Origin: a bacterium | Lineage (GTDB): Bacteria; Patescibacteriota; Minisyncoccia; Phycocordibacterales; VMGT01 | Assembly: GCA_030697645.1 (NCBI GenBank) | Contig: JAUYPI010000015.1 | Span: 15,583 to 79,582 of the forward strand | Length of the DNA stretch: 64,000 bases | Reading direction: 5' to 3' | Part shown: positions 1 through 59,760 of the stretch, piece by piece | How the letters are laid out: every line of letters starts with the position of its first letter | Numbering within the stretch: the first letter of the stretch is position 1 | Position numbers and translations under genes: made by a program | Notes under the pieces: generated by a model | The model's input: the letters and a program-made list of their open reading frames with translations, nothing else | The model's database searches: none | What the model was told of the DNA's origin: nothing

Positions 1-1261
1 TGTTTGAGCCGCCGGACGTCCTGGCCGTCTACGAGGACTGCGCCCTCCTCTACATCCGCGAAGCGGAGGATGAGTTTCGTGATCGTGGTTTTGCCGGCGC
101 CCGAGTGGCCGACGATGCCGACCTTTTCTCCTGCCCGAATCTTGAGAGAAAAATCGGAGAAGATTTTTTGCTTATGATACGCAAATGTCACGCGGTCGAA
201 TACGATCTCGCCCCCGGCGATATGGAATTCTTCCGGCGCGTCGGGATCGCTAATGTCCGATTTTTTTTCGAACACCTCGACAAGTTCTGATGCGTTTGAG
301 AGCGTTCTGGTGAAGCGGCTTATCGAATTTCCGAGAAACCAGAGACTGTTAAAAATTCTGCCGAAGTAGAGCTGTACGAGTACCACGGTTCCCGTCGAAA
401 GGGCGCCCGCAAGCCAGAAGCGGATTGAAAGATACATACCGACGATCTCAAGGAGCATCATGAGCGTCCCCTGTGCCGCGTACATGACGATCTCAAAATT
501 CCATGCTTGACGCCGTGCTTCTTCTTGGCGGCCGGTGTAGACCGTAAATGCGTCATACTCACGTCTGCTCGACGCGAACATTTTTATATTGAGAATGTTC
601 GTAATCACATCCGCGATGCGGCCGGTCACCTTTGAATCTTCCGCTGCCTCGGCGAGATCATACGGGCGTTGTTTTCGGATAAACAATAAAACGATCGCGA
701 TGAATGCGACGCTCCACAGAAAGAAGAAAATCGCTATTCCCGGCGATGCTTGGAAAAGCACCACCAGTACCACAACGAGAAGCAGGCCGTTCATCCAGAA
801 GTTGAAGGCGAATACTTCTTGCATGTTTTGAAATGCGTCTATATAACGGCGCGTGCTCGCGACGAGCGAGCCGACGAACGTGTTGCTGAAAAAACTATAC
901 GAATGCCGGGTGATCCGCACGAATGCGTCATTCGCAAGCGCCCGGATTATCTTGCGCTGCGATTTCCAAAGCAGGTAGTCCGCCAGGCGATAGGCGATAT
1001 TGCTTGCCACGGCGGCTATCACAACAAAAAAGAGCAGGTGAAAAAGCGTCTGCGCGATCGCTGACTTCTCCGGCTCGCTTGATATGGCGTCTATGAGTCT
1101 GCGGTAGAGGACCGGCGTGACTCCGTTCGAGATGAGCGTTCCGGTCGCATAGAAAGAGAGAGCCGAAAAAAACGACCAGCGGTATTTTTTCATCTGGAGC
1201 CAGTAGTAGTGTATGATGGTGCGAAAACGCACGCCACCTTTTTGTTTTTTAGTTTGTGCCA
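1..1261 (-). CDS. ABC transporter, fused permease/ATP-binding protein (MsbA-like); C-terminal nucleotide-binding domain runs off the window edge
   Basis: The minus-strand frame from ATG (complement of 1259..1261) to nt 1 encodes multi-TM segments followed by a Walker A motif (GHSGAGKTT) near nt 60..100. The ORF continues past the window start, so it is absent from the supplied ORF track. Confidence 0.55.
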
Positions 1262-3375: not shown

Positions 3376-4479
3376 TTAATAGAAAAGAGTTCTAAAAACT
3401 GGCTGGAACAGGCTGGTGTCTTTCCGACACGCGACCCGGAAGTCACAGCTCGGGCAATTGGGCTCCACGAGCTCGGGGCAGTAGGAACGTGCTCGCCAAA
3501 GCGCGTGATCCACAAATGCCATCACACGCCTTAGACGTGGGAGCCGGGCTCGCACAATCGTGGCAAGCGTATGGACGGCCTGATATGTCGCCCGGCGGAT
3601 CGCTTCCTCGATCGTTGCGGTGACAAAGAGTCGGGCACTATTTGCGGTGCGGAGTACTTTCGCGAGTAGCACCATGCCGCTCCTGAGGCAGACGCGCATG
3701 ATGTGGTAGTCAATGATCGGCCGCAGGTCTTCCCTCTCTGCCGGGACGAGAAAACGCTCGGGCCGCGAAATCATCTCCATCGCAAAGAGCCCGATTTTTT
3801 TTTGGAGCGGGTCCTCCCAAAAACCGGGGACCCACGAGAAGAGCCGATACAATGCTGCGAGCGGCTGTGCAGCGAGGTTTGCGACTTCGATCATTTTTTT
3901 CGGGCTGTTGAGGCCCGACAGTGCGGCACGAAAGTATGCGCCATAGCGGTGCGTGAGCGCGACGCGTGCCTCGATGTCAGGAAACGGCATGGGACCAAGA
4001 TCATCCGAGAGGAGATGCTGGATCGCAACGCCGCTCATGTGCGCGAGGCGGTAGGGCTCGAAGATGCCGCGGTCGCGGTCAAATTCCTGTTTGAGTGCCG
4101 CGAAGAGCAAGGCTGACCCGCGGTACTCTTTGCCTCTGATGTGGCCGGTGATGGGACTCTCATAGCGGCCGTCGCTTGCATACCAAAACCCGTGGTTTTG
4201 AACACAGCTGAATGCGAAAAAGTTTACTGCCTCACTGTCGCCTAGCCCCGGGAAGAGGTCGGCGGCGTAGGTGCGGACGCCATTTTTCTCGGAGCTGTGA
4301 AAGTCCATGCCGCCGCCGCTCTCCGGTATCGGCATCGAGCACAAGACATTTGCAATTTTTTCAATCCGTCGCGGGTTGGTTCGCGCGAGCATGGGTATCT
4401 CCTTGTGGACCGGAACGTCTTGGGTGTTCGATTCTGATGAGACAATAGCCGATTTTTCACCTTCTGACAACCCGCGCAT
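3376..4479 (-). CDS. Hypothetical protein, possibly DUF2419 / queuosine-salvage (Qng1)-like
   Basis: 367-aa ORF with consistent codon usage. Weak resemblance to Qng1 signature segments (SFW..G.Y.G..AL.AA, IDYHIMRV). The C-terminal Cys cluster CPELVEPNCPSCDFRVAC is not typical of Qng1. The family assignment is from memory, not a search. Confidence 0.4.
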   Translation of the reverse strand: MRGLSEGEKSAIVSSESNTQDVPVHKEIPMLARTNPRRIEKIANVLCSMPIPESGGGMDFHSSEKNGVRTYAADLFPGLGDSEAVNFFAFSCVQNHGFWYASDGRYESPITGHIRGKEYRGSALLFAALKQEFDRDRGIFEPYRLAHMSGVAIQHLLSDDLGPMPFPDIEARVALTHRYGAYFRAALSGLNSPKKMIEVANLAAQPLAALYRLFSWVPGFWEDPLQKKIGLFAMEMISRPERFLVPAEREDLRPIIDYHIMRVCLRSGMVLLAKVLRTANSARLFVTATIEEAIRRATYQAVHTLATIVRARLPRLRRVMAFVDHALWRARSYCPELVEPNCPSCDFRVACRKDTSLFQPVFRTLFY

Positions 4480-6616: not shown

Positions 6617-6733
6617 CTCAAAAATTTTCAATTATCAATTTTATAATTTTTAATCAATTTTCAATTACTCAATTTTCAAACACGACGTCGTCCGTTATTG
6701 AAAATTGAAAATTGTAAATTGAAAATTATCACC
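6617..6733. repeat. Hairpin-array element (arm AATTTTCAAT / ATTGAAAATT, core CAAACACGACGTCGTCCGTT)
   Basis: Fills the whole pilM-pilN intergenic region and ends 3 nt before the ATG at 6734. The core contains the palindrome ACGACGTCGT. Confidence 0.8.
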
Positions 6734-7399: not shown

Positions 7400-7514
7400 C
7401 TCAATTATCAATGTTCAATTTTAAATTTTCAATCAATTTTCAATTACCAAATTTTCAAACACGACGTCGTCCGTTATTGAAAATTGAAAATTGTAAATTG
7501 AAAATTAATAATCC
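7400..7514. repeat. Hairpin-array element (same arm and core as 6617..6733)
   Basis: caattatcaatgttcaattttaaattttcaatcaattttcaattacc - caaacacgacgtcgtccgtt - attgaaaattgaaaattgtaaattgaaaatt. Ends 7 nt before the pilO ATG. Confidence 0.8.
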
Positions 7515-8136: not shown

Positions 8137-8328
8137 ATGAAAATTTTCAATTTTCAATTTTGCAATTTTCAATCAATTTCCAAGTACTCAATTTTCAAAC
8201 ACGACGCCGTTCGTCATTAAGTCATTGCAGCATTGAAAATTTATTGAAAATTGTAAATTGAAAATTATGAACACCGGCGCTTGGTTTGACATTTGAGTTT
8301 GCTCCAATTTCGGATTTTAATTTGTTGT
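8137..8328. repeat. Hairpin-array element (AATTTTCAAT family)
   Basis: aattttcaattttcaattttgcaattttcaatcaatttccaag... core caaacacgacgccgttcgtcatt ... attgaaaatttattgaaaattgtaaattgaaaatt. Ends at the ATG of the next gene. Confidence 0.75.
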
Positions 8329-10731: not shown

Positions 10732-11121
10732 ATGAGCGAAAATGAAAAACAAAAAAAGCAACTCCTGCTTATTGATGACGATGAGTTTCTCATTGATATG
10801 TACTCCACGAAGTTTACGGGGGCAGGGTTCGCTGTTATGGCGATGCGGAGCGTAGATGAGGCCCTCGGGAAGCTGCGTGAAGGGTACACACCTGCCATTA
10901 TCCTTCTTGATCTTGTCATGCCCACGGTTGGCGGCATTGCATTTTTGAAAGCGAGGCGAGATGAGCGCCTTGCGCCTGATGCGGTCGTCATTGTGCTCTC
11001 AAATCAGAGTGATGAGGCGCGCATCGAGGAGGCGAAGAAGCTTGGGGCGAAGGGATATATTTTGAAAGCGAACACCGTACCGTCGGAGGTATTAGAGCAG
11101 GTGCAGGCGCTTGCGGGTTAA
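10732..11121 (+). CDS. Single-domain response regulator (CheY/PilH-like receiver)
   Basis: 129 aa with receiver-domain acidic pocket residues (LLIDDDE...LLDLVMP) and a conserved K near the C-terminus. Sits between pilB and pilT. Confidence 0.7.
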   Translation: MSENEKQKKQLLLIDDDEFLIDMYSTKFTGAGFAVMAMRSVDEALGKLREGYTPAIILLDLVMPTVGGIAFLKARRDERLAPDAVVIVLSNQSDEARIEEAKKLGAKGYILKANTVPSEVLEQVQALAG

Positions 11122-11232
11122 TTTTCAATGCTCAATTTTCAATCAATTTACAATGGTCCAATTTTCAAACACGACGTCGTTCATCTATTGAAACATTGAA
11201 AATTGAAAATTAGAAATTGAAAATTTTCGTCT
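11122..11232. repeat. Hairpin-array element (AATTTTCAAT family)
   Basis: ttaattttcaatgctcaattttcaatcaatttacaatggtcc - aattttcaaacacgacgtcgttcatct - attgaaacattgaaaattgaaaattagaaattgaaaatt. Ends 9 nt before the pilT ATG. Confidence 0.8.
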
Positions 11233-12359: not shown

Positions 12360-12531
12360 GCACGAGAAATTTTCAATTTCCAATTTTCAATTTCCAATCA
12401 ATTTTTAATTACTCAATTTTCAAACACGTCGTCGCCATTGAGTCATTGAAGCATTGAAAATTTATTGAAAATTGCTCATTGAAAATTGAAAATTAAAAAT
12501 GTCTGCCTTTGGTTTCCCCCTTTAGCATTTC
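12360..12531. repeat. Hairpin-array element (AATTTTCAAT family)
   Basis: gaaattttcaatttccaattttcaatttccaatcaatttttaattactcaattttcaaacacgtcgtcgccattgagtc ... attgaaaatttattgaaaattgctcattgaaaattgaaaatt. Confidence 0.75.
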
Positions 12532-13773: not shown

Positions 13774-13900
13774 AAGTCAATTTCCAATTTCCAAATTTTC
13801 AAATCTCAAACACGGAAAACGTTCGGGTTTGGAAATTGGAGCTTTGAGATTTGGAGATTGTTTGGAAATTGTAAATTTGGAACTTGGAAATTCGAGTCTT
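13774..13900. repeat. Hairpin-array element (arm ATTTCCAA / TTGGAAAT, core CAAACACGGAAAACGTTCGGGTTTGG)
   Basis: caatttccaatttccaaattttcaaatctcaaacacg...cgggtttggaaattggagctttgagatttggagattgtttggaaattgtaaatttggaacttggaaatt. Ends 6 nt before the secF ATG at 13901. Confidence 0.75.
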
Positions 13901-15025: not shown

Positions 15026-15631
15026 ATGGGACAGTTGGCGTGGAATTGCCAGTTTTTTCAGTACCTGCAACAGATCGATCAGCTCGCCGAGAAAATGCGG
15101 AACGATAAGGAGCTGGTTCGAAGCGTTGAGCATGCAACCCAGTGCCTGATTTCTACCCTGGGCACTGGCCACAAGATCCTCATTGCCGGCAATGGCGGCA
15201 GCGCGGCGCATGCGCAGCACTTTGCGGCCGAGCTCGTGGGTCGCTTTGCGAGGGCGCGACGGGCGCTGCCAGCACTCGCGCTCACGACCGACACCTCGAT
15301 CATCACGGCGTGGAGCAATGATTTTTCGTTTGAGGATGTGTTTGCGCGGCAGATCGAGGCGCTTGGCGCACAACGCGATATTTTTCTCGCCCTCTCAACG
15401 AGCGGTAATTCTTCGAACGTGATAGTCGCACAGAACGCGGCAAAGTTGCGAGGCCTTAGGATGCTGTGCCTTTTGGGCAAAGGCGGCGGCAAGCTTCTCG
15501 AAGCGTGTGAGCTCGAAGACTGTATTGTCGTGCCGTCGGACAACACGCAGCTTATCCAGGATGCGCATCAGTGGATTTTGCATCATTGGTGCGCGGCAAT
15601 TGATGAGGCGTTCTCGTCGATGGAGCGGTAG
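15026..15631 (+). CDS. gmhA: Phosphoheptose isomerase (SIS domain) GmhA
   Basis: SIS-domain motifs ILIAGNGGSAAHAQHFAAEL and FLALSTSGNSSNVI. About 190 aa. Confidence 0.7.
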   Translation: MGQLAWNCQFFQYLQQIDQLAEKMRNDKELVRSVEHATQCLISTLGTGHKILIAGNGGSAAHAQHFAAELVGRFARARRALPALALTTDTSIITAWSNDFSFEDVFARQIEALGAQRDIFLALSTSGNSSNVIVAQNAAKLRGLRMLCLLGKGGGKLLEACELEDCIVVPSDNTQLIQDAHQWILHHWCAAIDEAFSSMER

Positions 15632-20553: not shown

Positions 20554-20582
20554 TTGACCGCGCGCGGGGCTTCGGCTATAGT
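20554..20582 (+). promoter_or_regulatory. Candidate rRNA promoter (TTGACC-17 nt-TATAGT)
   Basis: Near-consensus sigma-70 -35 and -10 hexamers with a 17-nt spacer, about 180 nt upstream of the 16S 5' end. Confidence 0.4.
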
Positions 20583-20764
20583 AGCTAGGCGGTGTCTTCA
20601 AGGCATGCGCGCGAGAGTTCTTTGACAACAGAATAAGCATACACACAAGACAAAGCAAAAACAAAACGTCTATTCCTTAAAAAAACAGAGAGCAGAAGAA
20701 GTTGTTCCTTCTTTTGTTCCGTCCACAAATAGGGAGGTTGGAGATACTCCAACTTCTATAATTT

Positions 20765-20803
<39 letters not shown>

Positions 20804-20851
20804 GATAAGGCATGCAAGTCATACGGGCCGCACCTCATTGCATTCGGTGCG

Positions 20852-20990
20852 GAATTTTCAATTTTCAATTTTACAATTTTCAAATAATTTCCAATGATTA
20901 AATTTCCAATTTCCAAACACGACGTCGTCGGCGTTTGAAAATTGACCCATTGAAAATTTATTGAAAATTGAAAATTGATAATTGAAAATT
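20852..20990. repeat. Hairpin-array element (AATTTTCAAT family) inserted in the 16S V1 helix
   Basis: Same arm unit and core (caaacacgacgtcgtcggcgtt) as the pil intergenic copies. Flanked by hairpins ccgcacctcattgcattcggtgcgg and gccgcaccgagtgtggcgaggtgcggc. Confidence 0.8.
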
Positions 20991-21190
20991 CCGCCGCACC
21001 GAGTGTGGCGAGGTGCGGCTAGTGGCGAACGAGGCAGTAATACGCAGGAACGTACCCTGGAGACGGGCATAACCAGCCGAAAGGTTGGCTAATTCCCGAT
21101 GGTCCGAGCACATATTTTTGGAGAAAAACAAAAGGCGCATCCTGTACCTGTATAGATACTTTGGATGCGCCCTGCAACATTGAGCGGTTT

Positions 21191-21310
21191 CTAGAGGAAC
21201 AGGAAAGTAGCAATCATTACGGCGATGATACCGACTAAGACCCAAGACATCCAACGAAGCTGACTTGGGCCATAGTCTATTCTTCCGCTCTGTCCTCTCG
21301 CGATTTTCAT
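21191..21310 (-). CDS. Candidate 39-aa single-TM peptide antisense to the 16S V2 insertion
   Basis: aggaggTCGTCatg SD-ATG, then MKIARGQSGRIDYGPSQLRWMSWVLVGIIAVMIATFLFL. It is below the 60-aa cut-off of the ORF track. Coordinates are approximate to a few nt. Confidence 0.3.
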   Translation of the reverse strand: MKIARGQSGRIDYGPSQLRWMSWVLVGIIAVMIATFLFL

Positions 21311-22157
21311 GACGACCTCCTTTTTCGCTGAAGAAAGAAAAGCATAGGGGTCTATATATTGTCAAGTATCTTACTTGGCTTCCAAAAATATGTGCTCGGT
21401 AAAGGAGCAATCTGCTCCGGGAGCGGCCTGCGGGCTATCAGCTAGTTGGTGGGGTAACGGCCTACCAAGGCTCTGACGGCTAGGGGGGGTGAGAGCCCGA
21501 TCCCCGCCGATGACACTGCGACACGGGTCATACACCTACGGGTGGCAGCAGCCGAGAATATTCGACAATGGGCGAAAGCCTGATCGAGCGACGCCGCGTG
21601 GTGGATGAAGCACTTCGGTGCGTAAACACCTTTTATGAGGGAAGAAGTTCGCCGCACCTCATTGCATTCGGTGCGGACATTTCGATATATCGAAATTTCG
21701 AAATATCGAAATGTCCGCCGCACCGAGTGCAGCGAGGTGCGGCGGATTGACGGTACCTCATGAATAAGGGGCTCCTAATCACGTGCCAGCAGGAGCGGTA
21801 ATACGTGAGCCCCAAGCGTTATCCGGAATCACTGGGCGTAAAGGGTGTGTAGGCGGCCGCGTTAGTCCTCCGTTAAATCCCACGGCTCAACCGTGGAGCT
21901 GCGGAGGATACGGCGCGGCTTGAGGGCGCGAGAGGTGTGCGGAACTCACGGTGTAGGGGTGAAATCCGTTGATATCGTGGGGAACACCAAAAGCGAAGGC
22001 AGCACACTGGCGCGCCCCTGACGCTGAAACACGAAAGCGTGGGTAGCGAAGCAGATTAGATACCTGCGTAGTCCACGCCCTAAACTCTGTCCGCTAGCTT
22101 TTCGGAGTATCGACCCTCTGGGAGGCGAAGCTAACGCGTTAAGCGGACCGCCTGGGA

Positions 22158-22189
<32 letters not shown>

Positions 22190-22722
22190 AGACGGGGACC
22201 AGCACAAGCGGTGGATCATGTGGTTCAATTCGATGGTAAACGAAGAACCTCACCAGGGCTTGAAATCCAGATGAACTCGCCTCGAAAGGGGTGCGGCCTT
22301 CACAAGAGGCATCTGGACAGGTGCTGCATGGTTGTCGTCAGTTCGTGGCTTAAGTTGTTCCCTTTAGTGGGGTAACGAACGCAACCCCCGTCGCCTGTTA
22401 TACGTGTCAGGCGAGACTGCCCAGCCCAAAGTGCGGCTCACTTCGGTTCGCCGCAGAATCAAGAAGTATGAAGTATGAAGTATGGAAATGTACGAAGAAA
22501 AACCATAATTCATGATTCATAATTCTTGCTTCTGCATCGAGCGGAGCGAGATGCATTTCGGGCTGGGAGGAAGGCGGGGATGACGCCAAATCAGCATGGC
22601 CCTCTGACGCCCTGGGCTACACACGTGATACAATGGCCGGTACAACGGGTCGCGACGGGGTAACCCTGAGCCAATCCTTATAAAGCCGGCCTCAGTTCGG
22701 ATTGAGGTCTGCAACTCGACCT

Positions 22723-22757
<35 letters not shown>

Positions 22758-23610
22758 TATACTGCGGTGAATACGTTCTCTGGTCTTGTACTCACCGCCC
22801 GTCATGCTAAGGGAGCCGGGAATACCCGAAACCCCGCCCTTTGCTCGCGGAGCAAAGGGCGGGATATATCGAAATTTTGAAATATCGATATGTCCCGCCC
22901 TTTGTTCACTTCGTGAACAAAGGGCGGGGTTACGGTAAGCTCGGTGACAGGAGCAAAGTCGTTGAGACATACTGTCTTGTTGCGACCTATGTGAGCGATC
23001 ACATAGTAAAACCCAACTGATATCGGTGAACCCCAGCGTACACAATTCACAATTTCTAATTTCAATTTTGAATTAGTCATTGAGAATTCGTAGTTGCGCC
23101 AGCTGGGCAATACCGAGGGAAGCCCACTAGGAGCTAGTTTTTTAACTGGTAACTAGTTGCGGCCCCGTAGAGACTTCCTGCACTTTTCTAGAAGTAGAAG
23201 GCGCAGGGGATGGCGTTGAAAAATTCACGCTATAAAACGTTGGCCCCAGCCGTAAAGTTTCCTAAAGAAACATTACGGCTGGGTGAAGATATAGTCCGTG
23301 CCTCAATGTAAATTGAGGGTAACACATGAACAAGGCACCGGTAGCGGAAGCTGTTGGTGGAATCATTCCTAGATCCCGTCCCAAGGCGCGTAAAGCGCGC
23401 CATGTTTAAATATTTAAATGTTTAAACATGGCCAAAATTCGCTTTGCGAATTTTGGCGAGGACTGATCAGGTCGGTCCGAGGGTGGAAGTTTTTCTTCCA
23501 TTCCTCGGAATCATGCTGTGGCTGTCAGCTAAACCAGCTAGCGGAGTTAGATGCAAATTTAGCTTCCAACCGTGGACGGAACAAAAGAGGGAACAAAAAA
23601 CACTCAAAAA

Positions 23611-23640
23611 ACCGCTCAATCGAGCGGTTTTTTGCTTCGC
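23611..23640 (+). terminator. Intrinsic terminator after the 16S gene
   Basis: aaccgctcaatcgagcggtt hairpin plus a TTTTTT tail. There is no 23S or tRNA in the following 40 kb of window, so the rRNA operon looks unlinked. Confidence 0.6.
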
Positions 23641-23703
23641 AGCGAATAGCCGAAAGATTTTTATTGCACGTTAAAAAATCATGCTAGTCAAGTAGTATCT
23701 TGG

Positions 23704-23732
23704 TTGACAATCGTACATTCTCCTGTAAGCTA
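23704..23732 (+). promoter_or_regulatory. Candidate promoter (TTGACA-16 nt-TAAGCT) of duplicated unit 1
   Basis: Consensus -35 followed by a TAnnnT -10. It is duplicated almost exactly at 25489..25516 upstream of the paralogous gene. Confidence 0.4.
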
Positions 23733-23902
23733 TTGAAGTTGCCTAGATTTAGGCATCGAGATTAAACCTCTCTTTATATGGGAGGTTTTGTTTGTTCTTT
23801 GTTAACGGAAAGGAGGTGATGCCTATGTGGGTTTCGTGAGAGATACAAGGGTTTTTCCCGAGTTTTTCAACTGATGACAAACGGAAATGAAAGGGAAGAT
23901 TC

Positions 23903-25276
23903 ATGGTTTCGAAATTAAAGTTCTTGGTCGCAGTATTGCTGATGATTGGTCTTGGTCTGCCCATGTCTATGGTGGCAGCCCCGGCGCCAGATGCAGTGTC
24001 TGTCCTTATTTTGGACAGCACAGTAAGCGGAGGGGCTCTATCGCGTGAGGCAGTACTCGCTGCCGCGAACGGGTTCACAGTGGTAGTTGACAGCGCCGCG
24101 GCCTGGGGCGCGAGAACTATGGCTGAATTCGCGACCTTTAGGGCGATCATTCTCGGTGATGCGACGTGCACGGGCGTTGGCGCGGTGGCCGCCGCCGAAG
24201 CAAACAAGGCAGTGTGGGGGCCAGCGATAGATGGCAACGTGATTATCAACGGTACGGACCCGGTATTTCACCAGGGCCAAGGCGGGGATGCGCTTACCGA
24301 AGGCAGCATTAAGTTTGCGGCTGATGAGCCAACTAAGACAGGCGCCTACATCAGTCTGAGCTGCTATTATGCCGGTGCAGCCTCTGGCACACCCGCGCCT
24401 GTGTTGGATCCTTTTGGCAGTTTTACGGTCGTTGGTCAGGGTGGATGCCCCGCAGATTCGCACATCGTGGCAGTGCACCCGGCGCTTGCTGGGATTACTG
24501 ATGCCAGCCTGTCAAACTGGGGTTGTTCTACCCACAACGGGTTTGTGACGTATCCGGCGGACTTCCTCGTTCTTGCTATTTCCGAGGATATCCCTTCAAC
24601 CTATGTGGCGCCTGATGGATCGACTGGCGCCCCCTATATTCTCGCGCGTGGTGAGACGCTCTCGCCGATTCTGTGCGGGAACGGGATTCTGGAGATGACC
24701 GAGGAGTGCGACGACGGTAACGTTGTCAACGGAGATGGATGTTCTGCCCAGTGCAAGATTGAGGTCTATGTACCTGCGTGCGGGAACGGAATCCTTGATT
24801 CAGGCGAGCAGTGCGACGACGGAAACCTGCTGAATGGGGACGGATGTTCGGATGTCTGTAAGTTCGAGAACCAAGACCCCGATTGTAAGAGCGCGTATCC
24901 TGATCCGGCGACCCTTTGGCCACCGAATCATAAGTACGTGACCGTTTCTGTTCTCGGTGTCACGGATCCTGACGGCGATGCAGTCGTTGTCATGGTGAAC
25001 AGCGTGACGCAGGACGAGCCAGTAAATGGTCTCGGTGACGGCGACACCTCGCCCGATGCCGTGATTAATTCTGACGGTACAGTCAAGGTTCGCGCCGAAC
25101 GCTCCGGAACCCCAAAGGTACCAGGTGATGGACGAGTCTATCACATTGGTTTCATGGCGGAAGACGGCATGGGCGGCAAGTGCGCCGGGACTGTCTTAGT
25201 GTGCGTGCCCCACGACATGGGACAGGGCAGCGTCTGTGTAGACGGCGGACCGCTGTATGACTCGCTCATGCCGTAG
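23903..25276 (+). CDS. Secreted protein: signal peptide, N-terminal domain, two myxo-type cysteine-rich repeats, shared C-terminal domain
   Basis: Signal peptide MVSKLKFLVAVLLMIGLGLPMSMVAAPA. Two C-x-N-G-x-L-E/D-x-x-E-x-C-D-D-G-N-x-x-N-G-D-G-C-S repeats (TIGR02232-like; family from memory). A C-terminal ~130-aa domain (WPPNHK...VTDPDGD...GTPKVPGDGRVYH...VCVPHDMGQGSVCVDGGPLYDSLMP) is shared with 25712..27766. Confidence 0.6.
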   Translation: MVSKLKFLVAVLLMIGLGLPMSMVAAPAPDAVSVLILDSTVSGGALSREAVLAAANGFTVVVDSAAAWGARTMAEFATFRAIILGDATCTGVGAVAAAEANKAVWGPAIDGNVIINGTDPVFHQGQGGDALTEGSIKFAADEPTKTGAYISLSCYYAGAASGTPAPVLDPFGSFTVVGQGGCPADSHIVAVHPALAGITDASLSNWGCSTHNGFVTYPADFLVLAISEDIPSTYVAPDGSTGAPYILARGETLSPILCGNGILEMTEECDDGNVVNGDGCSAQCKIEVYVPACGNGILDSGEQCDDGNLLNGDGCSDVCKFENQDPDCKSAYPDPATLWPPNHKYVTVSVLGVTDPDGDAVVVMVNSVTQDEPVNGLGDGDTSPDAVINSDGTVKVRAERSGTPKVPGDGRVYHIGFMAEDGMGGKCAGTVLVCVPHDMGQGSVCVDGGPLYDSLMP

Positions 25277-25334
25277 TAGTTAACCCTCCTTCCGTAATTT
25301 TGTAAGGCCGCCTCATCCTCTGAGGCATGGCAAA

Positions 25335-25372: not shown

Positions 25373-25488
25373 GTCCAATTGTCCAACGATTAAAAATCGC
25401 TCCGTTGAGCGGTTTTTTGCGTCGCGTTTAATCGAAGGAGGATTTTAATCGCACATTAAATAATCATAGCAGTCAAGTATTACTTGTG

Positions 25489-25516
25489 TTGACAAACGTA
25501 CATCCTCCTGTAAGCT
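25489..25516 (+). promoter_or_regulatory. Candidate promoter of duplicated unit 2
   Basis: Near-identical copy of 23704..23732 and its downstream structured leader (gttgcctag.tttaggcatcg...aacctctctttat.gggaggt.ttgtttgttctttgttaacggaaaggaggtg). Confidence 0.4.
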
Positions 25517-25711
25517 ATGGAAGTTGCCTAGTTTTAGGCATCGGTATCAAACCTCTCTTTATGGGAGGTCTTGTTTGTTCTTTGTTAACGGAAAGGAGGT
25601 GGTGCATTTGAGTGTCGCAGGTATCGCAGGACGATATTTTTTGCGAGAGGGACGGAGCGAATTGTTCACTCCGCCCGAGACGAATCCAGTCTACGGAAAA
25701 GGAACGATTGA

Positions 25712-27766
25712 ATGTTACGACATTATGTAGCGACTGTTTTGGTTGTAGTGATGGCGCTTGTTGCGCCATTGCAATCGGCTCTCGCGGGCCATCTCACCGG
25801 TACTCCGGCAACGTACACGCTCGATGCAGACTTCGACGAGGGCACCCTCGTGAACGTCAACCATACTGATGTGACTGATCAACTTCAGCTCAACAGTGTA
25901 GCTAAGCCATTTGGTTTCATTTGGATCGCCGCATCCGATCGTGGAACGGTGATCAAGATTAACACAGTGACTGGCGCAATTCTCGGCGAATATCGGACTG
26001 CACCTGCAGGCCGCGCGCTTAACCCGTCTCGGACTACCGTTGACAGCAATGGCAGTGTCTGGGCAACAAACCGCAACGAAGGCGACTTTGTCGCAGCCAA
26101 CGCCATTTCACCAGGTATTCCAGCCGCAGGTGGCGGCATGGGTTCTGTCGTCCACATCGGCCTTGAAGAAAACGGGCAGTGTGTGGATCGAAACGGCAAT
26201 GCTGTTATTGATACGTCCGCGGGACTTGGCGATATTAAGCCATGGCTAAACGGCGGCGGTGTTGATAATCTTGGCGGTGTCTCAACCGCCGAGGACGAGT
26301 GTATTATTCACTACACGCGTGTCAACTCAACCTTTTCCCGGCATGTGTCTGTTAATACCAGCAACAATGTGTGGGTCTCTGGCATCGGGGATCGGAACTT
26401 CGACCTCGTTGACGGTGCGACTGGCATGATCATTAGTCAACAGCCATCCGTCGGCTTCGGGGGCTATGGCGGTTTGATTGACGGCGCAGGTGTTATCTGG
26501 TCTGCGCGGCCACTCCTGCGCTGGGATACGGCGCTTCCTTTAGTGGGGCCAAATGGGGATCCTGCGGGATTTAGCATCGGTCCGCCAGCGCCTGCAACCA
26601 ATTGGTCCGGCCAAGGTGCGCCTGATAGTTATGGGCTCTGCATTGACCCATCTGGCAATGTCTGGAATACGCGCTTGTTCGGAAATGCGATTGACAAGTA
26701 CGCGCCGGACGGCACACACCTCGGCACATTTGCCCATGGAAATGGTGAAGCGCAGGGCTGTGTCGCAGACACGAGTGGCCATATCTGGGTTGCACATTCT
26801 TTATTCGGTGCGACCACTGTTGGTCATTTACTGAATGACGGCACCTACGTGGGGAACGTGCCTCTTCCGGGAGGTGTCGGCCCAACTGGTCTTGCCGTGG
26901 ATGCGGCTGGAAAAATTTGGTCTGCTAATATTAGCTCCAATAACGCCTCACGGATTGATCCCTCGTTGGGACCTATCGGTGGAGGCGGAGTTCCTGTCGG
27001 TGCCGTAGACATGACGGTCGCGCTCGGTGCGGGCGCAGGTCCGTATAATTATTCCGACATGACCGGCAGCACCCTGATTGCTGCGCCGAACAATGGCACA
27101 TGGACGATCGTTCATGATAGCGGTGTCGTCGGGCAAGAGTGGGGCAAGGTGAGCTGGACTGCTTCCACGCCGTCCGATAGCATGCTGACGGTGACGGTTG
27201 CGAGTAGTGGCGACGGTTTGATCTTTGGACCTCCGGAAGCCGCGACGAATGGCGGCGATCTGTCGGTCGCGAACGGACAGTATGTGAAGGTGGTCGTGAG
27301 CTTTACGCGCGCGACGACCGGCGAGAGTCCTATCTTGTATGACTTAAGTCTCTCAACGAACGAAGCTCCCGACTGCGACGGTGCCTATGCGGACCCAGGC
27401 GTAATCTGGCCGCCGAATCACAAAATGGTGCCGCTTACAATAAGCGGCGTGACGGATCCTGATGGCGATCCGGTCGTGATCATAGTGACAGGTATCATGC
27501 AGGACGAGCCGACGAACACGCTTGGCGATGGCAACACCGAAGTTGATGGCGCTATTGACATGAGTGGCATGGCTTCTGTTCGTGCCGAACGCACCGGAAC
27601 CCCCAAAGTACCGGGTGACGGACGAGTCTACCATGTGACCTTCGAAGCTGATGATGGCAATGGTGGAAAATGCTCCGGTGTTGCACGGGTCTGCGTACCC
27701 CACGACATGGGACAGGGCAGCGTCTGTGTAGACGGCGGACCGCTGTATGACTCGCTCATGCCATAA
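25712..27766 (+). CDS. Secreted protein: signal peptide, beta-propeller-like repeat region, shared C-terminal domain
   Basis: Signal peptide MLRHYVATVLVVVMALVAPLQSALA. Repeated G-x-h-W-x-x-N blades (NGSVWATN, SGNVWNTR, SGHIWVAH, AGKIWSAN) resembling NHL / SMP-30-type propellers. The final ~130 aa are paralogous to 23903..25276, and the last 25 aa are identical. Confidence 0.6.
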   Translation: MLRHYVATVLVVVMALVAPLQSALAGHLTGTPATYTLDADFDEGTLVNVNHTDVTDQLQLNSVAKPFGFIWIAASDRGTVIKINTVTGAILGEYRTAPAGRALNPSRTTVDSNGSVWATNRNEGDFVAANAISPGIPAAGGGMGSVVHIGLEENGQCVDRNGNAVIDTSAGLGDIKPWLNGGGVDNLGGVSTAEDECIIHYTRVNSTFSRHVSVNTSNNVWVSGIGDRNFDLVDGATGMIISQQPSVGFGGYGGLIDGAGVIWSARPLLRWDTALPLVGPNGDPAGFSIGPPAPATNWSGQGAPDSYGLCIDPSGNVWNTRLFGNAIDKYAPDGTHLGTFAHGNGEAQGCVADTSGHIWVAHSLFGATTVGHLLNDGTYVGNVPLPGGVGPTGLAVDAAGKIWSANISSNNASRIDPSLGPIGGGGVPVGAVDMTVALGAGAGPYNYSDMTGSTLIAAPNNGTWTIVHDSGVVGQEWGKVSWTASTPSDSMLTVTVASSGDGLIFGPPEAATNGGDLSVANGQYVKVVVSFTRATTGESPILYDLSLSTNEAPDCDGAYADPGVIWPPNHKMVPLTISGVTDPDGDPVVIIVTGIMQDEPTNTLGDGNTEVDGAIDMSGMASVRAERTGTPKVPGDGRVYHVTFEADDGNGGKCSGVARVCVPHDMGQGSVCVDGGPLYDSLMP

Positions 27767-45107: not shown

Positions 45108-48100
45108 ATGGTAAAAAAGGTGGCACAAAAAAAGGCAAAGAAAGCCGTACAAAAACGTGCGGGAAAAATGAAAACGGCAAAGCCGGGGAATGGCTACGGC
45201 GCCGATCAGATCCAGGTGCTCGAGGGCCTCGAGCCGGTGCGCCGCAGGCCCGGCATGTACATCGGCACGACCGGGCCCGACGGCCTGCATCATCTGGTCG
45301 TCGAGGTGTTTGACAACTCGCGCGACGAGGCGATGGCGGGCTTTGGCGGCGACATCGAGCTTGCGCTTCTCCCGGGTAACCGCGTGCGCGTTGTGGACAA
45401 CGGCCGCGGCATTCCGGTGGAACGCCATCCGCAGACCAAAGTTTCGACACTTGAAACCGTGATGACGACGCTCCATGCGGGAGGCAAGTTCGGCTCCGGC
45501 GGCTACACGGTGAGCGGCGGGCTCCATGGCGTCGGCGTCTCGGTCGTGAACGCGCTCTCGGAGCGGCTCCGCGCCGAGGTGCACCGCGACGGCAGCGCTC
45601 ACGCGCAGGAGTACCGCCGCGGCGAGCCGCTCGCGGCGGCGAAGCGCATCGGCGCGTCGGAGCGCACTGGCACTATCATTACCTTCGAGCCGGACGCAAC
45701 CGTATTTAAAGACGGCATCAGTTTTGACTGGAAGCGCATCGTGGACCACATGCGCCAACAGGCGTACCTCGTGAAAGGAATGCGTATTACGCTCCTTGAT
45801 GCGCGCGCGTATGAGGGGAAGTTCGATGACCAAAAAGTGTTCTACCTGCGTGATCTCGGGCTCGATCTCCCCTCGACGTCGTTTTACTTTGAAGGTGGCC
45901 TGCTCTCGCTCGTACGGTTTTACAATCAGTCGGAGAAGCCGGTGCACAAGAGCATTTTTTATATTGAAAAAGAAGCGCGCGCGCTCGGCGTCGAGTCTGT
46001 GGAAATTGCGTTTCAGTACGTGGACGATATCTCGTACCGCATCCTCGCGTTTGCGAATAATACGTTCAACGGCGAGGGCGGCACACATCTTACCGGCTTC
46101 AAGGGCTCGCTCACTCGCACGCTGAATAGCTACGCGCGCGCGAACAATCTTCTCAAGGAGAAAGACGAAAATTTCACCGGCGAGGACGTGCTCGAGGGGC
46201 TCACCGCGGTGATTAGCGTGAAGCTCCGCGAGATACAGTTTGAAGGGCAGACGAAGGCAAAGCTCGGCTCAGTCGAGGCGCGTACGGCGCTTGAGGGCGT
46301 GATGAACGAGGCGCTTTCGAATTTTCTTGAGGAGAATCCGGACGAAGCGCGCGCGATCATCGGCAAAGTTTCGCTTGCGATGCGGGCGCGGAAAGCCGCG
46401 AAAGCCGCAAAAGACAGCGTGCTCCGCAAAGGCGCGCTCGAGGGCATGACGCTTCCGGGCAAGCTCGCCGACTGTCAGAGCAAAAAGCGCGAGGAGACGG
46501 AACTTTTCGTGGTGGAAGGCGACAGCGCCGGAGGATGTTGGAGTGGAGATACAAAGGTGGCGTTAGCTGACGGACGACATCTTAGCTTTTTAGAGTTGGT
46601 TAAAGAGCATGAGGAAGGCAAGCAGAATTTTTGTTACACCATGCAGGAAAACGGACATATCGGTTTAGCACCAATCGAAAGTCCGAGACGGACGAAACAA
46701 AATGCCGACGTGATTAAGGTGACTCTCGACACAGGCGATGACCTTCTTTGTACCCCCGACCACCTCTTTCGACTCGTGGACGGTAGTTACATTCCTGCGT
46801 ACAACCTAACGTCAAGCCACAGTTTAGCGCCCCTGTATCGCAAAATATCAAAAAAGGGAGAAGGAACACAACTGAACGGGTACGAGATGGTTTTTGACCC
46901 TCAAGCACATAAATGGATGCCAACCCATATTCTTGCTGATATATATAATTTGAAAAAAAACGTCTATGTAACAACTGATGGTAACCACCGGCATCATTTT
47001 GATTTTAATAAGAGGAATAATAATCCGACGAACATTAAACGAGTAACGTATGAGCAGCACATGGCGTACCACCATGCCTACATAGAAAGGACGTTACATC
47101 GTCCTGATGTTAAGCAGAAATCTATTGACTCAAAACGTATCGCGGAGTTTCGTGAACGTGCGAGGGCAAAGTCGCTCGAAAAGCGCGAGCTTTTTAGTGA
47201 GAATGCAAAACGACAGTGGCAGGATGAGGACTATAAGACGTATATGGTCCAAAAATTTCTCGATTACTATTCGAGTAACGAATCGTATCGTAAGCGCAAT
47301 AACGCTCTGCTCGATAAAGCGCAGCGTGAATATTGGAGCGATAACGAAAATCGTCGTGTGCAGTCCGATCGCGTGCGTGTGTTTTTCGAAGCACATCCGG
47401 AACGGAAAGCGTGGTTGTCGCGAGAAGCGAAGCGGCAATGGGACAGCGAATCGCTGCGCGCATGGCGGGGTGAGACAACGCGCCTACAATGGACTCCGGC
47501 GTTTCGTGAAAAACGTCGGGAGGCGTACAACGAGACCTATCTACGTAAGGCGCTCGGTGTCTTGCATGAGCTCTACGCGGAAAACGGCACCATCGATTAT
47601 GCGCGCTATAACGCGCTTCGCAGAGAACGAAATGACCGGAGCATTATTCGCCACGACACAATATGCGAGCGATTTTTTGACGGCGACATGGGACGTATGG
47701 AGGAGGCAGTGGTGAATTATAACCACCGCATCGTAAGGATTGAGCGGCTTGAGGAGCCGATGGATGTTTATGATCTTGAGGTCCCCGGCACGCACAACTT
47801 CGCGCTTGCATCGGGCGTGTTCGTCCACAATAGCGCAAAAATGGCGCGGGACCGGGTAACACAGGCGATTCTGCCGCTCTTCGGCAAGGTGCTCAATGCC
47901 GAGCGCGCGCGGCTTGATAAAATTTTGGCATCGGACAAATTCCGCGCGCTTGTGATCGCGCTCGGCACGGGGATCGGCGAGGGGGTTGATCTCGAGAAGC
48001 TCCGCTACGGCCGCATCATCATCATGGCCGATGCGGACGTTGACGGGTCGCACATCAAGACGCTCTACCTTACCTTTTTTTATCGCCAGCTGCGCGACAT

Positions 48101-48575
48101 TATCGAGCGCGGGCACCTCTACATCGCCGTGCCGCCGCTCTATAAAATTACGCGAGGCAAAGAGGCGCACTACGTGTTTACCGATGACGAGAAGGCGGCG
48201 TATCTCAAAAAACTCGGCGTTGCGATTGATGACGTCTCGGAGCTTGAAGAGGAAGGGGAGGATGGAGAAGGGGATGCGGCTGCGGGCGGCGAGGCACCCG
48301 GAGGCGGAGAGCGCGAGGCAGGAGGAAGCGCGGAAGAGGGAAAACCGAAGAAAACCCCAAAGGTCTCGGTCCAGCGCTACAAGGGCCTCGGCGAGATGAG
48401 CGCGGACGAGCTCTGGGAGACCACGATGGACCCGGCGAGCCGCCTGCTTCACCATGTGATGATCGAGGATGCCGCCGAGGCGGACAAAGTCTTTGACATC
48501 CTCATGGGCACCGATGTTCCGGCGCGCAAAAGTTTTATCCAGAGCAACGCGAAATTGGCGAATCTTGATATATAG
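45108..48575 (+). CDS. gyrB: DNA gyrase subunit B, interrupted by an intein
   Basis: GHKL ATPase N-terminus, then LFVVEGDSAGG | intein | SAKMARDRVTQAILPLFGKVLN, and the Toprim and C-terminal domains (IIIMADADVDGSHI...YKGLGEMS). Has a Lys-rich N-terminal extension. Confidence 0.9.
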   Translation: MVKKVAQKKAKKAVQKRAGKMKTAKPGNGYGADQIQVLEGLEPVRRRPGMYIGTTGPDGLHHLVVEVFDNSRDEAMAGFGGDIELALLPGNRVRVVDNGRGIPVERHPQTKVSTLETVMTTLHAGGKFGSGGYTVSGGLHGVGVSVVNALSERLRAEVHRDGSAHAQEYRRGEPLAAAKRIGASERTGTIITFEPDATVFKDGISFDWKRIVDHMRQQAYLVKGMRITLLDARAYEGKFDDQKVFYLRDLGLDLPSTSFYFEGGLLSLVRFYNQSEKPVHKSIFYIEKEARALGVESVEIAFQYVDDISYRILAFANNTFNGEGGTHLTGFKGSLTRTLNSYARANNLLKEKDENFTGEDVLEGLTAVISVKLREIQFEGQTKAKLGSVEARTALEGVMNEALSNFLEENPDEARAIIGKVSLAMRARKAAKAAKDSVLRKGALEGMTLPGKLADCQSKKREETELFVVEGDSAGGCWSGDTKVALADGRHLSFLELVKEHEEGKQNFCYTMQENGHIGLAPIESPRRTKQNADVIKVTLDTGDDLLCTPDHLFRLVDGSYIPAYNLTSSHSLAPLYRKISKKGEGTQLNGYEMVFDPQAHKWMPTHILADIYNLKKNVYVTTDGNHRHHFDFNKRNNNPTNIKRVTYEQHMAYHHAYIERTLHRPDVKQKSIDSKRIAEFRERARAKSLEKRELFSENAKRQWQDEDYKTYMVQKFLDYYSSNESYRKRNNALLDKAQREYWSDNENRRVQSDRVRVFFEAHPERKAWLSREAKRQWDSESLRAWRGETTRLQWTPAFREKRREAYNETYLRKALGVLHELYAENGTIDYARYNALRRERNDRSIIRHDTICERFFDGDMGRMEEAVVNYNHRIVRIERLEEPMDVYDLEVPGTHNFALASGVFVHNSAKMARDRVTQAILPLFGKVLNAERARLDKILASDKFRALVIALGTGIGEGVDLEKLRYGRIIIMADADVDGSHIKTLYLTFFYRQLRDIIERGHLYIAVPPLYKITRGKEAHYVFTDDEKAAYLKKLGVAIDDVSELEEEGEDGEGDAAAGGEAPGGGEREAGGSAEEGKPKKTPKVSVQRYKGLGEMSADELWETTMDPASRLLHHVMIEDAAEADKVFDILMGTDVPARKSFIQSNAKLANLDI
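46536..47831 (+). mobile_element. Intein in GyrB (432 aa) with no recognisable LAGLIDADG/HNH block
   Basis: Starts C-W-S-G-D-T-K-V (block A) and ends VFVHN followed by extein Ser. The middle carries KRQW/REYW-type tandem repeats. Its first ~550 nt are markedly more AT-rich than the flanking gyrB. Confidence 0.8.
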
Positions 48576-52715: not shown

Positions 52716-52857
52716 GATGCGATGCGCTTAATTTTCAATTTTCAATTCCAATGAATTTTCAATGTTTCAATGATGCAATGACGGACGACGTCGTGTTTGA
52801 AAATTGGGTAATTGAAAATTGATTGAAAATTGAGCATTGAAAATTTTTCCTTGAGTC
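52716..52857. repeat. Hairpin-array element (AATTTTCAAT family, core in reverse orientation)
   Basis: ttaattttcaattttcaattccaatgaattttcaatg...gcaatgacggacgacgtcgtgtttg...aaaattgggtaattgaaaattgattgaaaattgagcattgaaaatt. Confidence 0.75.
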
Positions 52858-52872
52858 TTGTATACTATACTC

Positions 52873-59393: not shown

Positions 59394-59435
59394 GACGAGA
59401 GCGTCGCGGTGGAGTTATCCACACCACTTAAATTT

Positions 59436-59760
59436 TCAAATTATCAATTTTCAATTTCCAATCAATTTTCCAATGACACAATTTTCAAACACGACGTCGT
59501 TCGTCATTGAAATATTAGACCTCTCCAGAAAGTCATTTCTACTGCAATTTTTGGTTTTCGGCTGCGACTTCGTCAGACGTCGCAAAATGATTCTCGCCGT
59601 ACATCCAGTACGCCGTCGAATCATTTTGCTCGTCTTCCTCGTCTCGCTCGAAAACCAAAAATTTCGTCGCGAAATGACTTTTTGGAGAGGTCTATTGAAA
59701 ATTCATTGAAAATTGATAATTGGAAATTGAAAATTATGAGTCCGTTTTGGTGATTATGAT
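59436..59760. repeat. Hairpin-array element (AATTTTCAAT family) carrying a 190-nt internal palindromic cargo
   Basis: Arms and core caaacacgacgtcgttcgtcattgaaat, then a nested palindrome gacctctccagaaagtcatttc...ttttggttttcg...cgaaaaccaaaaa...gaaatgacttttggagaggtc, then attgaaaattcattgaaaattgataattggaaattgaaaatt. Confidence 0.75.

Follow-up and report, generated by a model that had tools for sequence, protein, structure and literature searches.

A Patescibacteria-like 16S ribosomal RNA gene with a probable group I intron and a 3' tail lacking the CCUCC core

What is to be made of a 16S ribosomal RNA (rRNA) gene whose universal 3'-terminal block is split by hundreds of nucleotides (nt) and whose 3' end lacks CCUCC, the core of the anti-Shine-Dalgarno (anti-SD) sequence? 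The question is raised by contig JAUYPI010000015.1 of assembly GCA_030697645.1, of which a stretch of 64,000 nt (positions 15,583 to 79,582 of the forward strand) was analysed; this whole 64-kb stretch is called the window below, and all coordinates refer to it. An earlier note on this DNA had described the insertion without recognising that it is a group I intron and that its site is a known hotspot of the candidate phyla radiation (CPR). We consider it highly probable that a group I intron and a derived tail are present here as distinct features of a single CPR/Patescibacteria-like 16S gene, which is functional although heavily interrupted.

Direct reading of the sequence puts the last base of AAGTCGT at 22962 and the first base of AACAAGG at 23329. 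The insertion is 366 nt long (22963-23328) and falls precisely between AAGUCGU and AACAAGG, the 5' exon ending in ...GGAGCAAAGUCGU and the 3' exon beginning with AACAAGGCACCGGUAGCGGAAGCUGUUGGUGGAAUCAUUCCUAGA. The ~360-nt split reported earlier is thus exact in its flanks, but its left coordinate (22968) lies 5 nt too far to the right of the true one (22963). In E. coli numbering, reckoned backwards from the 16S 3' terminus, the insertion point is 1498/1499; AAGUCGU corresponds to E. coli 1492-1498, with its first two A residues as the decoding-site A1492 and A1493. The Rfam model RF00028 matches 22954-23318 over model positions 1-253, with 51.8 bits (gathering score 50) and an E-value of 2.8e-10 for the whole window.

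The helices of a group I intron can be followed one by one in this insertion and in five related introns (Table 1). P1 is paired at 5/5 positions in the window intron and in each of the five relatives; P10 is paired at 6/6 positions in the window, 6/6 in L099 and 5/6 in L117. Compensatory changes are found across the six introns in P2, P3 and P9, those in P3 being CCGAC/GUCGG, CUGAC/GUCAG and UCGGC/GCCGA. The P7 pairing GACU/AGUC is invariant across all six, as are GATATAGTCC and GAUAUAGUCC in the core alignment, and the J8/7 core signature of the window intron reads GAAGAUAUAGUCC. An unconstrained minimum free energy (MFE) fold recovers P2, P3, P4, P5, P8 and P9, and the Rfam structure line agrees. 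The two extra hairpins between P7 and the 3' strand of P3 are regarded as peripheral, since they are present in L002 and absent in L078. No endonuclease open reading frame (ORF) is found in the window intron, the longest ORF being 33 amino acids (aa). A group I intron in a functional 16S gene is, jointly with the derived tail, the best explanation of the insertion, and we hold it with considerable confidence; from the features above, we infer that the window intron splices itself.

The relatives were obtained from a scan of reference genomes and metagenomes, which gave five other metagenomic CPR 16S loci with the insertion (L002, L078, L099, L101 and L117). Their introns are homologous to that of the window, lie at the identical point and measure 768-873 nt; all five have GCGAC, the core and the ...CAUG end. 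They also carry ORFs of 211-223 aa, which the window intron is without. Those of L002 and L078 belong to LAGLIDADG_2 (E-values of 1e-43 to 1e-47) and are located in the P6 region, while that of L099 belongs to LAGLIDADG_3 (E-value of 4e-15) and, like the similar ones of L101 and L117, is located in P8. The core of the window intron appears nearest to the L002/L078 type. Position 1498 is a recurrent insertion site in CPR, termed 16IS10, at which group I introns encode LAGLIDADG_2 or LAGLIDADG_3 proteins, and insertions in CPR rRNA are removed from the transcripts (Tsurumaki et al. 2024, J Bacteriol, PMC11270868). The window intron has the position of these mobile introns and lacks the LAGLIDADG ORF. 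Judged by its sequence, the window copy resembles the ribozyme part of the 16IS10 family and is not a mobile member of it.

Two further observations were made on the sampled loci. L025 (~1-130, minus strand) and L084 (~3400-4050) contain a different insertion that ends in ...ACAGTCGCGT immediately before AACAAGG; given that this end is not the ...CATG of the position-1498 intron, the insertion may be another element or reflect a shifted splice site. L002 (CAYSXS010000009.1) is titled 'uncultured Gammaproteobacteria' and has a CPR-type 16S signature, the position-1498 LAGLIDADG_2 intron and the tail GGAUUAUCUCCUUUCU; its taxonomic label or its binning is probably wrong.

The second feature is the tail. 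Helix 45 (23336-23359) is intact, with 10/10 standard pairs and a GGAA tetraloop. A canonical 16S terminus has this helix followed by CCUCC within a tail of ~13 nt; here the helix is present and CCUCC is absent. The tail sequence quoted in the earlier note, GGAAGCTGTTGGTGGAATCATTCCT, was located at 23346-23370. A covariance model was derived from canonical CPR terminal blocks, 22 distinct ones in all; run on the whole window, it gave a single significant match, at 23329-23371 (48.1 bits, E-value of 1.5e-9), the next one reaching at most 10.6 bits. In this match a 4-nt gap is placed in the tail and no CCUCC is seen. The terminal block had been aligned correctly in the earlier note. On the plus strand, CCTCC is absent from 22500 to 25284, i.e. 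until ~1.9 kb past the tail. The proposal that CCUCC is replaced by UUCC(U) in the tail GAAUCAUUCCUAG is borne out. A canonical tail hidden downstream was considered as a candidate and rejected, as there is no CCTCC before 25285 and only one match to the covariance model.

As the earlier note had suggested, the tail was compared with CPR 16S ends, using a set of 121 related CPR 3' ends with a common helix-45 signature. The sequence CACCUCCU is present in 89 of them, another 15 are one-base variants that keep CUCC, and 17 (~14%) are, like the window, without CUCC. The tails of L053 and L081 (GGAUCAUUCU...), two loci that have the helix-45 variant of the window and are among its best matches (78-80% 16S identity), align best as a 6-nt deletion of CCUCCU. 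The tails of L088 and L102 are similarly shortened, while those of L019 and L025 resemble C-to-U substitutions. The exact tail of the window is not found among the other sampled ends and is unique within the 121. Under either alignment model of the window tail, substitution or deletion, the CCUCC core is gone. Closer relatives were sought in two ways: a search with the flanking 192-aa protein gave only itself, and the 16S signature gave just 2 matches in reference genomes, one of them cut at the 3' end. For a confirmation of the tail by independent assemblies, the proteins encoded next to it (23903-25276 and 25712-27766) were looked up, and no record of them was found.

The anti-SD motif is known from just 48% of Parcubacteria, and the subgroup lacking it has been linked with the absence of uL1 (Tsurumaki et al. 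2022, RNA, PMC9297842). The mark of that subgroup, no CCTCCT at the 16S 3' end, is also seen in the window; the rplK-rplA region, which includes the uL1 gene rplA, lies outside it. Among cultured prokaryotes the loss is rare (128/20,648 taxa), and no case of co-varying SD and anti-SD was found in the 128 exceptional organisms (Amin et al. 2018, PMC6107228).

How genes start in the window was examined with 53 non-overlapping long ORFs and their candidate starts. A well-spaced SD core is absent in 44/53 genes (~83%), and this motif scan within the window agrees with the earlier statement that most genes have no GGAGG upstream. Nevertheless, AGGAG whose last base lies 4-10 nt ahead of the start is found in nine genes when 1.6 are expected, correctly spaced AAGGAG is found in 6 when 0.34 are expected, and SD-like 5-mers peak at -20..-11. 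About 1/6 of the genes keep a canonical-type SD, including rpoD (38130) and a sigma-factor gene (29377). The genes are mostly SD-less, but SD use is not abolished, given the nine genes with AGGAG. Upstream duplex energies, computed for the 53 genes with the canonical or the observed tail, are no better than those at internal in-frame start-like codons. The complements of the derived tail, AGGAA, GGAAT (GGAAU), AGGAAT, GAATGA and TAGGA, occur at starts at chance level, without enrichment. A new SD matching the derived tail was accordingly rejected, with motifs at chance and duplex energies equal to the internal controls.

Leaderless genes typically have a promoter -10 box immediately ahead of their start codon; leaderless mRNAs are found in Actinobacteria, and start selection in Bacteroidetes is largely SD-independent. 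In the window, a -10-like hexamer ends 5-9 nt before the start at 12/53 first-candidate starts (~6% expected) and, when early alternative starts are allowed, in 25/53 genes versus 15% of internal controls. Examples are TATAATACTTACTA-ATG (54613) and TATACTATACTC-ATG (the ORF at 52858). These hexamers suggest that leaderless mRNAs are a major mode of initiation here. The idea that AT-rich arms stand in place of the SD is correct in that heptad palindromes lie upstream of several genes, but the -10 box before the start is the better-supported signal. By a crude SD 5-mer measure, E. coli gives 14/41 versus 0/40 in controls; the same measure gives 15% versus 9% (284 genes) for CPR loci with canonical tails and 10% versus 7% (51 genes, a small sample) for those with non-canonical tails. 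SD use looks low in all these CPR loci, whichever the tail class.

The earlier note had also taken AAGGAGGTG for the SD of two tandem secreted-protein genes that follow the rRNA. The motif occurs at 23811 and 25594, in two duplicated leaders that are ~90% identical. Because it lies 80-110 nt upstream of the ATGs of these signal-peptide ORFs (23903 and 25712), it is not their SD. In each leader a terminator-like hairpin (23764-23788 in the first) is followed by AAGGAGGTG and then by a very small upstream ORF (mini-uORF), while AAAGGGAAGAUUC and AAAGGAACGAUUGA stand directly before ATG 23903 and 25712, respectively. As a whole, the duplicated leaders (23690-23905 and 25470-25715) each comprise a promoter-like TTGACA box, two hairpins, of which one is small and the other terminator-like with a U-run, AAGGAGGTG and the mini-uORF; they could be of the attenuator type, and they have no match to an Rfam family.

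From the anatomy of intron and tail, their homology, their recurrence in relatives and the motif statistics, all of which are observed, we infer splicing, a mature 3' end, leaderless transcription and residual SD function in the following manner. The intron would lie where a single-stranded segment connects helix 45 to the decoding-site strand of helix 44. Along the standard group I pathway, the guide GCGAC would pair with the exon GUCGU as P1, the splice site being marked by a U·G pair, and free guanosine at P7 would cut after U22962. With the 3' exon aligned by P10 (CUUGUU x AACAAG), the 3'-OH of the exon would then attack after the terminal G23328, by which ...AAGUCGUAACAAGG... would be restored. 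The ribosome would depend on this splicing, since an insertion left in place would come to lie at the subunit interface. The intron would have lost its homing-endonuclease gene, and it would thus be an immobile remnant that is vertically inherited. The spliced, mature RNA would end with helix 45 and the shortened tail GAAUCAUUCCU(AG). As this tail has no CCUCC core, SD pairing would not be the main route of start selection. Many starts would be chosen through a -10 box 5-9 nt upstream (leaderless) or an AT-rich leader, and the nine AGGAG genes may retain a residual, much weaker pairing with UUCCU.

Several points weigh against this account. The score of RF00028 barely exceeds the gathering threshold, and splicing and the mature 3' end are predictions from sequence. 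The alignment of the tail is ambiguous between the substitution and deletion models. Other assemblies of the same organism stop before the 16S gene, and a Logan contig with the upstream gene ends there; since independent assemblies break at this place, the tail sequence rests on one assembly. With 64 kb of the genome in view, a second 16S copy is possible. The gene starts were called crudely from ORFs, and the flanks of the kept SDs (A-AGGAG-G) suit a canonical anti-SD better than the derived tail.

Could the gene instead be a decaying or non-functional copy, its tail and insertions being products of decay, with a canonical 16S at work elsewhere? Six insertions in one gene, a tail without a match among 121 sampled ends, nine genes whose canonical-type SDs have flanks that fit CCUCCUU better than the derived tail, and the limited 64-kb view would all fit such a copy. 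However, the exons reach 1273.7 bits over the full model with the functional core conserved, helix 45 keeps all its pairs and its GGAA loop, P1 and P10 of the intron are perfect with the catalytic core kept, and the anti-SD is also absent in other CPR lineages. The apparent promoter, processing stem and terminator are intact, and the coherent way in which they surround the gene speaks for the tail as part of a working gene. A decaying copy is therefore very unlikely. That a canonical anti-SD is merely hidden, with a further tail insertion or a mis-assembly parting GGAUCA from CCUCCUUU, is barely credible: this 16S is indeed rich in insertions, and its unusually long ~170-nt trailer has hairpin elements resembling them, but there is no CCTCC on the plus strand from 22500 to 25284, the unit ends at the hairpin at 23605-23636, the covariance model detects no second terminal block in the window, and the tails of L053, L081, L088 and L102 are similarly short.

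A different proposal concerns what the tail does. It may be a weakened or re-tuned anti-SD, in which UUCCU pairs with AGGA(G/A) and the nine AGGAG genes use a genuine, weaker SD. Between AGGAG and the UUCCU tail (5'-AGGAG-3' x 3'-UCCUU-5'), 4 Watson-Crick pairs and 1 G·U pair are possible, well-spaced AGGAG exceeds its expectation (nine genes versus 1.6) with a positional peak, and the ATGs of the two secreted-protein genes are immediately preceded by AAGGAACGAUU and AAGGGAAGAUU, of which AAGGAACGAUU is complementary to the tail at 9/10 positions. Yet the perfect complements of the derived tail (AGGAA, GGAAU, AGGAAU and UAGGA) are not enriched at starts, the duplex energies of this tail are equal at starts and internal codons, and Amin et al. 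(PMC6107228) found no co-varying SD and anti-SD in their 128 exceptional organisms, so we find this proposal rather doubtful. A more speculative reading, which we consider unlikely, is that SD recognition is not wholly abandoned, nine genes with that of the primary sigma factor among them having kept a strong, correctly spaced (A)AGGAG: either UUCCU is a re-created minimal anti-SD for privileged mRNAs, or a second, canonical 16S gives rise to two ribosome populations with different start preferences. We retain a functional 16S gene with a group I intron and a derived tail as our reading of the locus.

Table 1. Coordinates of the features of the 16S locus and of the dispersed palindromes in the window.
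Feature	Position	Strand	Remarks
Promoter-like site of the 16S unit, TTGACC-17-TATAGT	20554..20582	+	10/12 consensus matches, best in region; consensus match only
Pre-16S processing stem, leader strand	20701..20757	+	Pairs with trailer 23542-23597
16S rRNA gene	20758..23372	+	Six insertions; 3' end by homology, predicted mature end
5' exon end AAGUCGU	22956..22962	+	Identical in 110+ intron-less relatives
Group I intron (highly probable), without homing-endonuclease gene	22963..23328	+	RF00028; helices verified
P10 strand CUUGUU	22976..22981	+	Pairs with 3' exon start AACAAG 23329-23334
P1, guide GCGAC	22982..22986	+	Pairs with exon GUCGU 22958-22962; U22962·G22982 at 5' splice site
P2 hairpin CUAUGUGA-GCGA-UCACAUAG	22987..23006	+	8/8 pairs in all six introns; sequences differ
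P3, CCAAC / GUUGG	23013..23017 / 23239..23243	+	5' strand / 3' strand; 5/5 in six introns; MFE fold
P4, UCGGUG / UACCGA	23023..23028 / 23111..23116	+	Rfam structure line, MFE fold
P5, CCCAG / CUGGG	23032..23036 / 23103..23107	+	P5 loop with AT-rich extension; P4-P5 region 23023..23116
J6/7 and P7 5' strand GUAGAGACUU	23167..23176	+	GACU 23172-23175 pairs with AGUC 23293-23296; conserved columns
Two extra P7.1/P7.2-like hairpins, P7 to P3 3' strand	23177..23231	+	CCUGC..GCAGG 23177-23207, GGCGU..ACGCU 23212-23231; MFE fold
P8 hairpin CCCAGCCGUAA ... UUACGGCUGGG	23245..23283	+	11 bp; Rfam structure line, MFE fold
J8/7 and P7 3' strand UGAAGAUAUAGUCC, catalytic-core signature	23284..23297	+	Matches Rfam consensus
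P9 hairpin CCUCAAU-GUAA-AUUGAGG	23301..23318	+	Fully paired in six introns, sequences differ; MFE fold
Terminal G (omega-G)	23328	+	Six of six introns at the site end in CAUG before AACAAGG
3' exon, AACAAGG then helix 45 (CACCGGUAGC-GGAA-GCUGUUGGUG)	23329..23359	+	
3' tail GAAUCAUUCCUAG	23360..23372	+	Canonical in relatives: GAUCACCUCCUUU; CCUCC absent, ~4 nt shorter
Processing stem, trailer strand	23542..23597	+	~170 nt past predicted 16S 3' end
Hairpin flanked by runs of A and T (AAAAAACCGCUCAAUCGAGCGGUUUUUUGC)	23605..23636	+	Stem CCGCUC/GAGCGG then UUUUUU on plus strand; search places it on minus strand
TTGAAAA palindrome sites	6623-6727, 7403-7506, 8137-8266, 11120-11225, 12368-12494, 13779-13892, 20853-20990, 52730-52845, 59431-59735		

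The bacterial 16S gene is present at full length in the window. An Rfam covariance search with RF00177 covers model positions 1-1533 from a start at 20758. Besides the group I intron, the Rfam small subunit (SSU) alignment leaves large insertions of 174, 275, 90, ~130 and 79 nt unaligned. The 3' end given by this alignment, 23009, was rejected as an artefact with many non-standard pairs in the last ~40 model positions; it arises because these positions were forced onto intron sequence. The leader and trailer strands of the processing stem form a duplex of -61.8 kcal/mol that includes ~25 nearly perfect pairs (UUGUUCCUUCUUUUGUUCCGUCCAC x GUGGACGGAACAAAAGAGGGAACAA), and the part of the trailer that separates this stem from the 16S end is unusually long and made of hairpins. 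The hairpin at 23605-23636 is probably the terminator of a 16S-only transcription unit. No 23S or 5S rRNA is found in the 64-kb window by Rfam search, and the 16S gene is adjoined by no 23S, 5S or tRNA gene. It seems to form an independent transcription unit (20554-23636) that has a promoter, a leader/trailer stem and a terminator of its own. Its identity to any sampled relative is at most ~80% (best matches 77-80%), and an assignment to CPR is suggested by a 16S signature also seen in CPR sequences, by the abundance of insertions in the rRNA and by the gene content.

The remaining insertions differ in kind. The 7-nt repeat TTGAAAA(TT) has 112 matches in the window when 14.6 are expected. Its copies make up large palindromes rich in A and T, in each of which those on the minus strand come before those on the plus strand; the palindromes are intergenic and often stand directly before a start codon. 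One such palindrome, with GC-rich arms, lies inside the 16S gene as the 174-nt insertion near helix 6, and it looks like a dispersed element that also invaded the rRNA gene. The 275-nt insertion (21115-21390) holds an antisense mini-gene on the minus strand, running from 21322 down to 21203, in which a very strong SD (AAAAGGAGGTCGTC-ATG) is followed by the 39-aa hydrophobic peptide MKIARGQSGRIDYGPSQLRWMSWVLVGIIAVMIATFLFL; the peptide has no Pfam match, and a long inverted repeat (21106-21125 / 21381-21400) brackets the mini-gene. The three further non-intron insertions (21652-21744, 22430-22555 and 22840-22925; 90, ~130 and 79 nt) each have a palindromic, AT-rich centre enclosed by a GC-rich stem, and no intron signature is detected in them by Rfam. 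The GC arm GCCGCACCTCATTGCATTCGGTGCGG is found at both 20828 and 21652.

Downstream of the rRNA, the first secreted-protein gene (23903-25276) encodes cysteine-rich acidic repeats and has its tandem partner at 25712-27766; CCCTCCTTCC follows the stop codon of both. Elsewhere in the window, gyrB (45108-48575) contains an intein with N- and C-terminal splicing motifs at residues ~477-913.

Taken together, the intron and the loss of the anti-SD are both real, and both are already published for CPR/Patescibacteria; no new kind of element is revealed. What the locus provides is a fully resolved example, in one gene, of two published CPR peculiarities, an endonuclease-less intron and an anti-SD-less tail. 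Removal of the intron would rebuild the decoding-centre strand of 16S in a genome where gene starts look largely leaderless. Given that the 16S end predicted by Rfam, 23009, falls inside the intron, an automatically annotated gene would be cut short and lack the tail. The region of primer 1492R is split by the intron, which matters for primer design, and the locus is a usable test case for translation start under weakened SD pairing.

Several known systems can be compared with the intron. Group I introns occur in the same 3' region of fungal and algal nuclear SSU rDNA (e.g. S1506), sometimes with LAGLIDADG or His-Cys box genes. They resemble the window intron, by description, in lying in the 3' minor-domain region, and differ in position and domain of life. 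A group I intron in bacterial 16S described in 2012 reportedly sits at 1495, not 1498. For such bacterial 16S introns, self-splicing was shown experimentally in that 2012 study, as cited in PMC11270868; they are like the window intron in lying near the 3' end of a bacterial 16S, and unlike it in belonging to another phylum. The 16IS10 introns (PMC11270868) have the same insertion point between AAGUCGU and AACAAGG, the group I architecture and a homologous core. In contrast to the relatives, which measure 768-873 nt and have an ORF of ~212 aa, the window copy is 366 nt long and lacks the endonuclease gene. It also has the two extra hairpins between P7 and the 3' strand of P3, which are common only with L002.

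As for the tail, Bacteroidetes and Actinobacteria are generally known to select starts mostly without SD, as the window appears to do; unlike the window, they keep CCUCC. The anti-SD-lacking Parcubacteria (PMC9297842) also have no CCUCCU in the tail and mostly SD-less genes, a likeness in tail and starts. The organisms of Amin et al. (PMC6107228) have likewise lost CCUCCU with no co-varying new SD. The window differs from those systems in its exact tail, GAAUCAUUCCU, which is absent among the 121 ends, and in that some of its genes keep a well-placed AGGAG.

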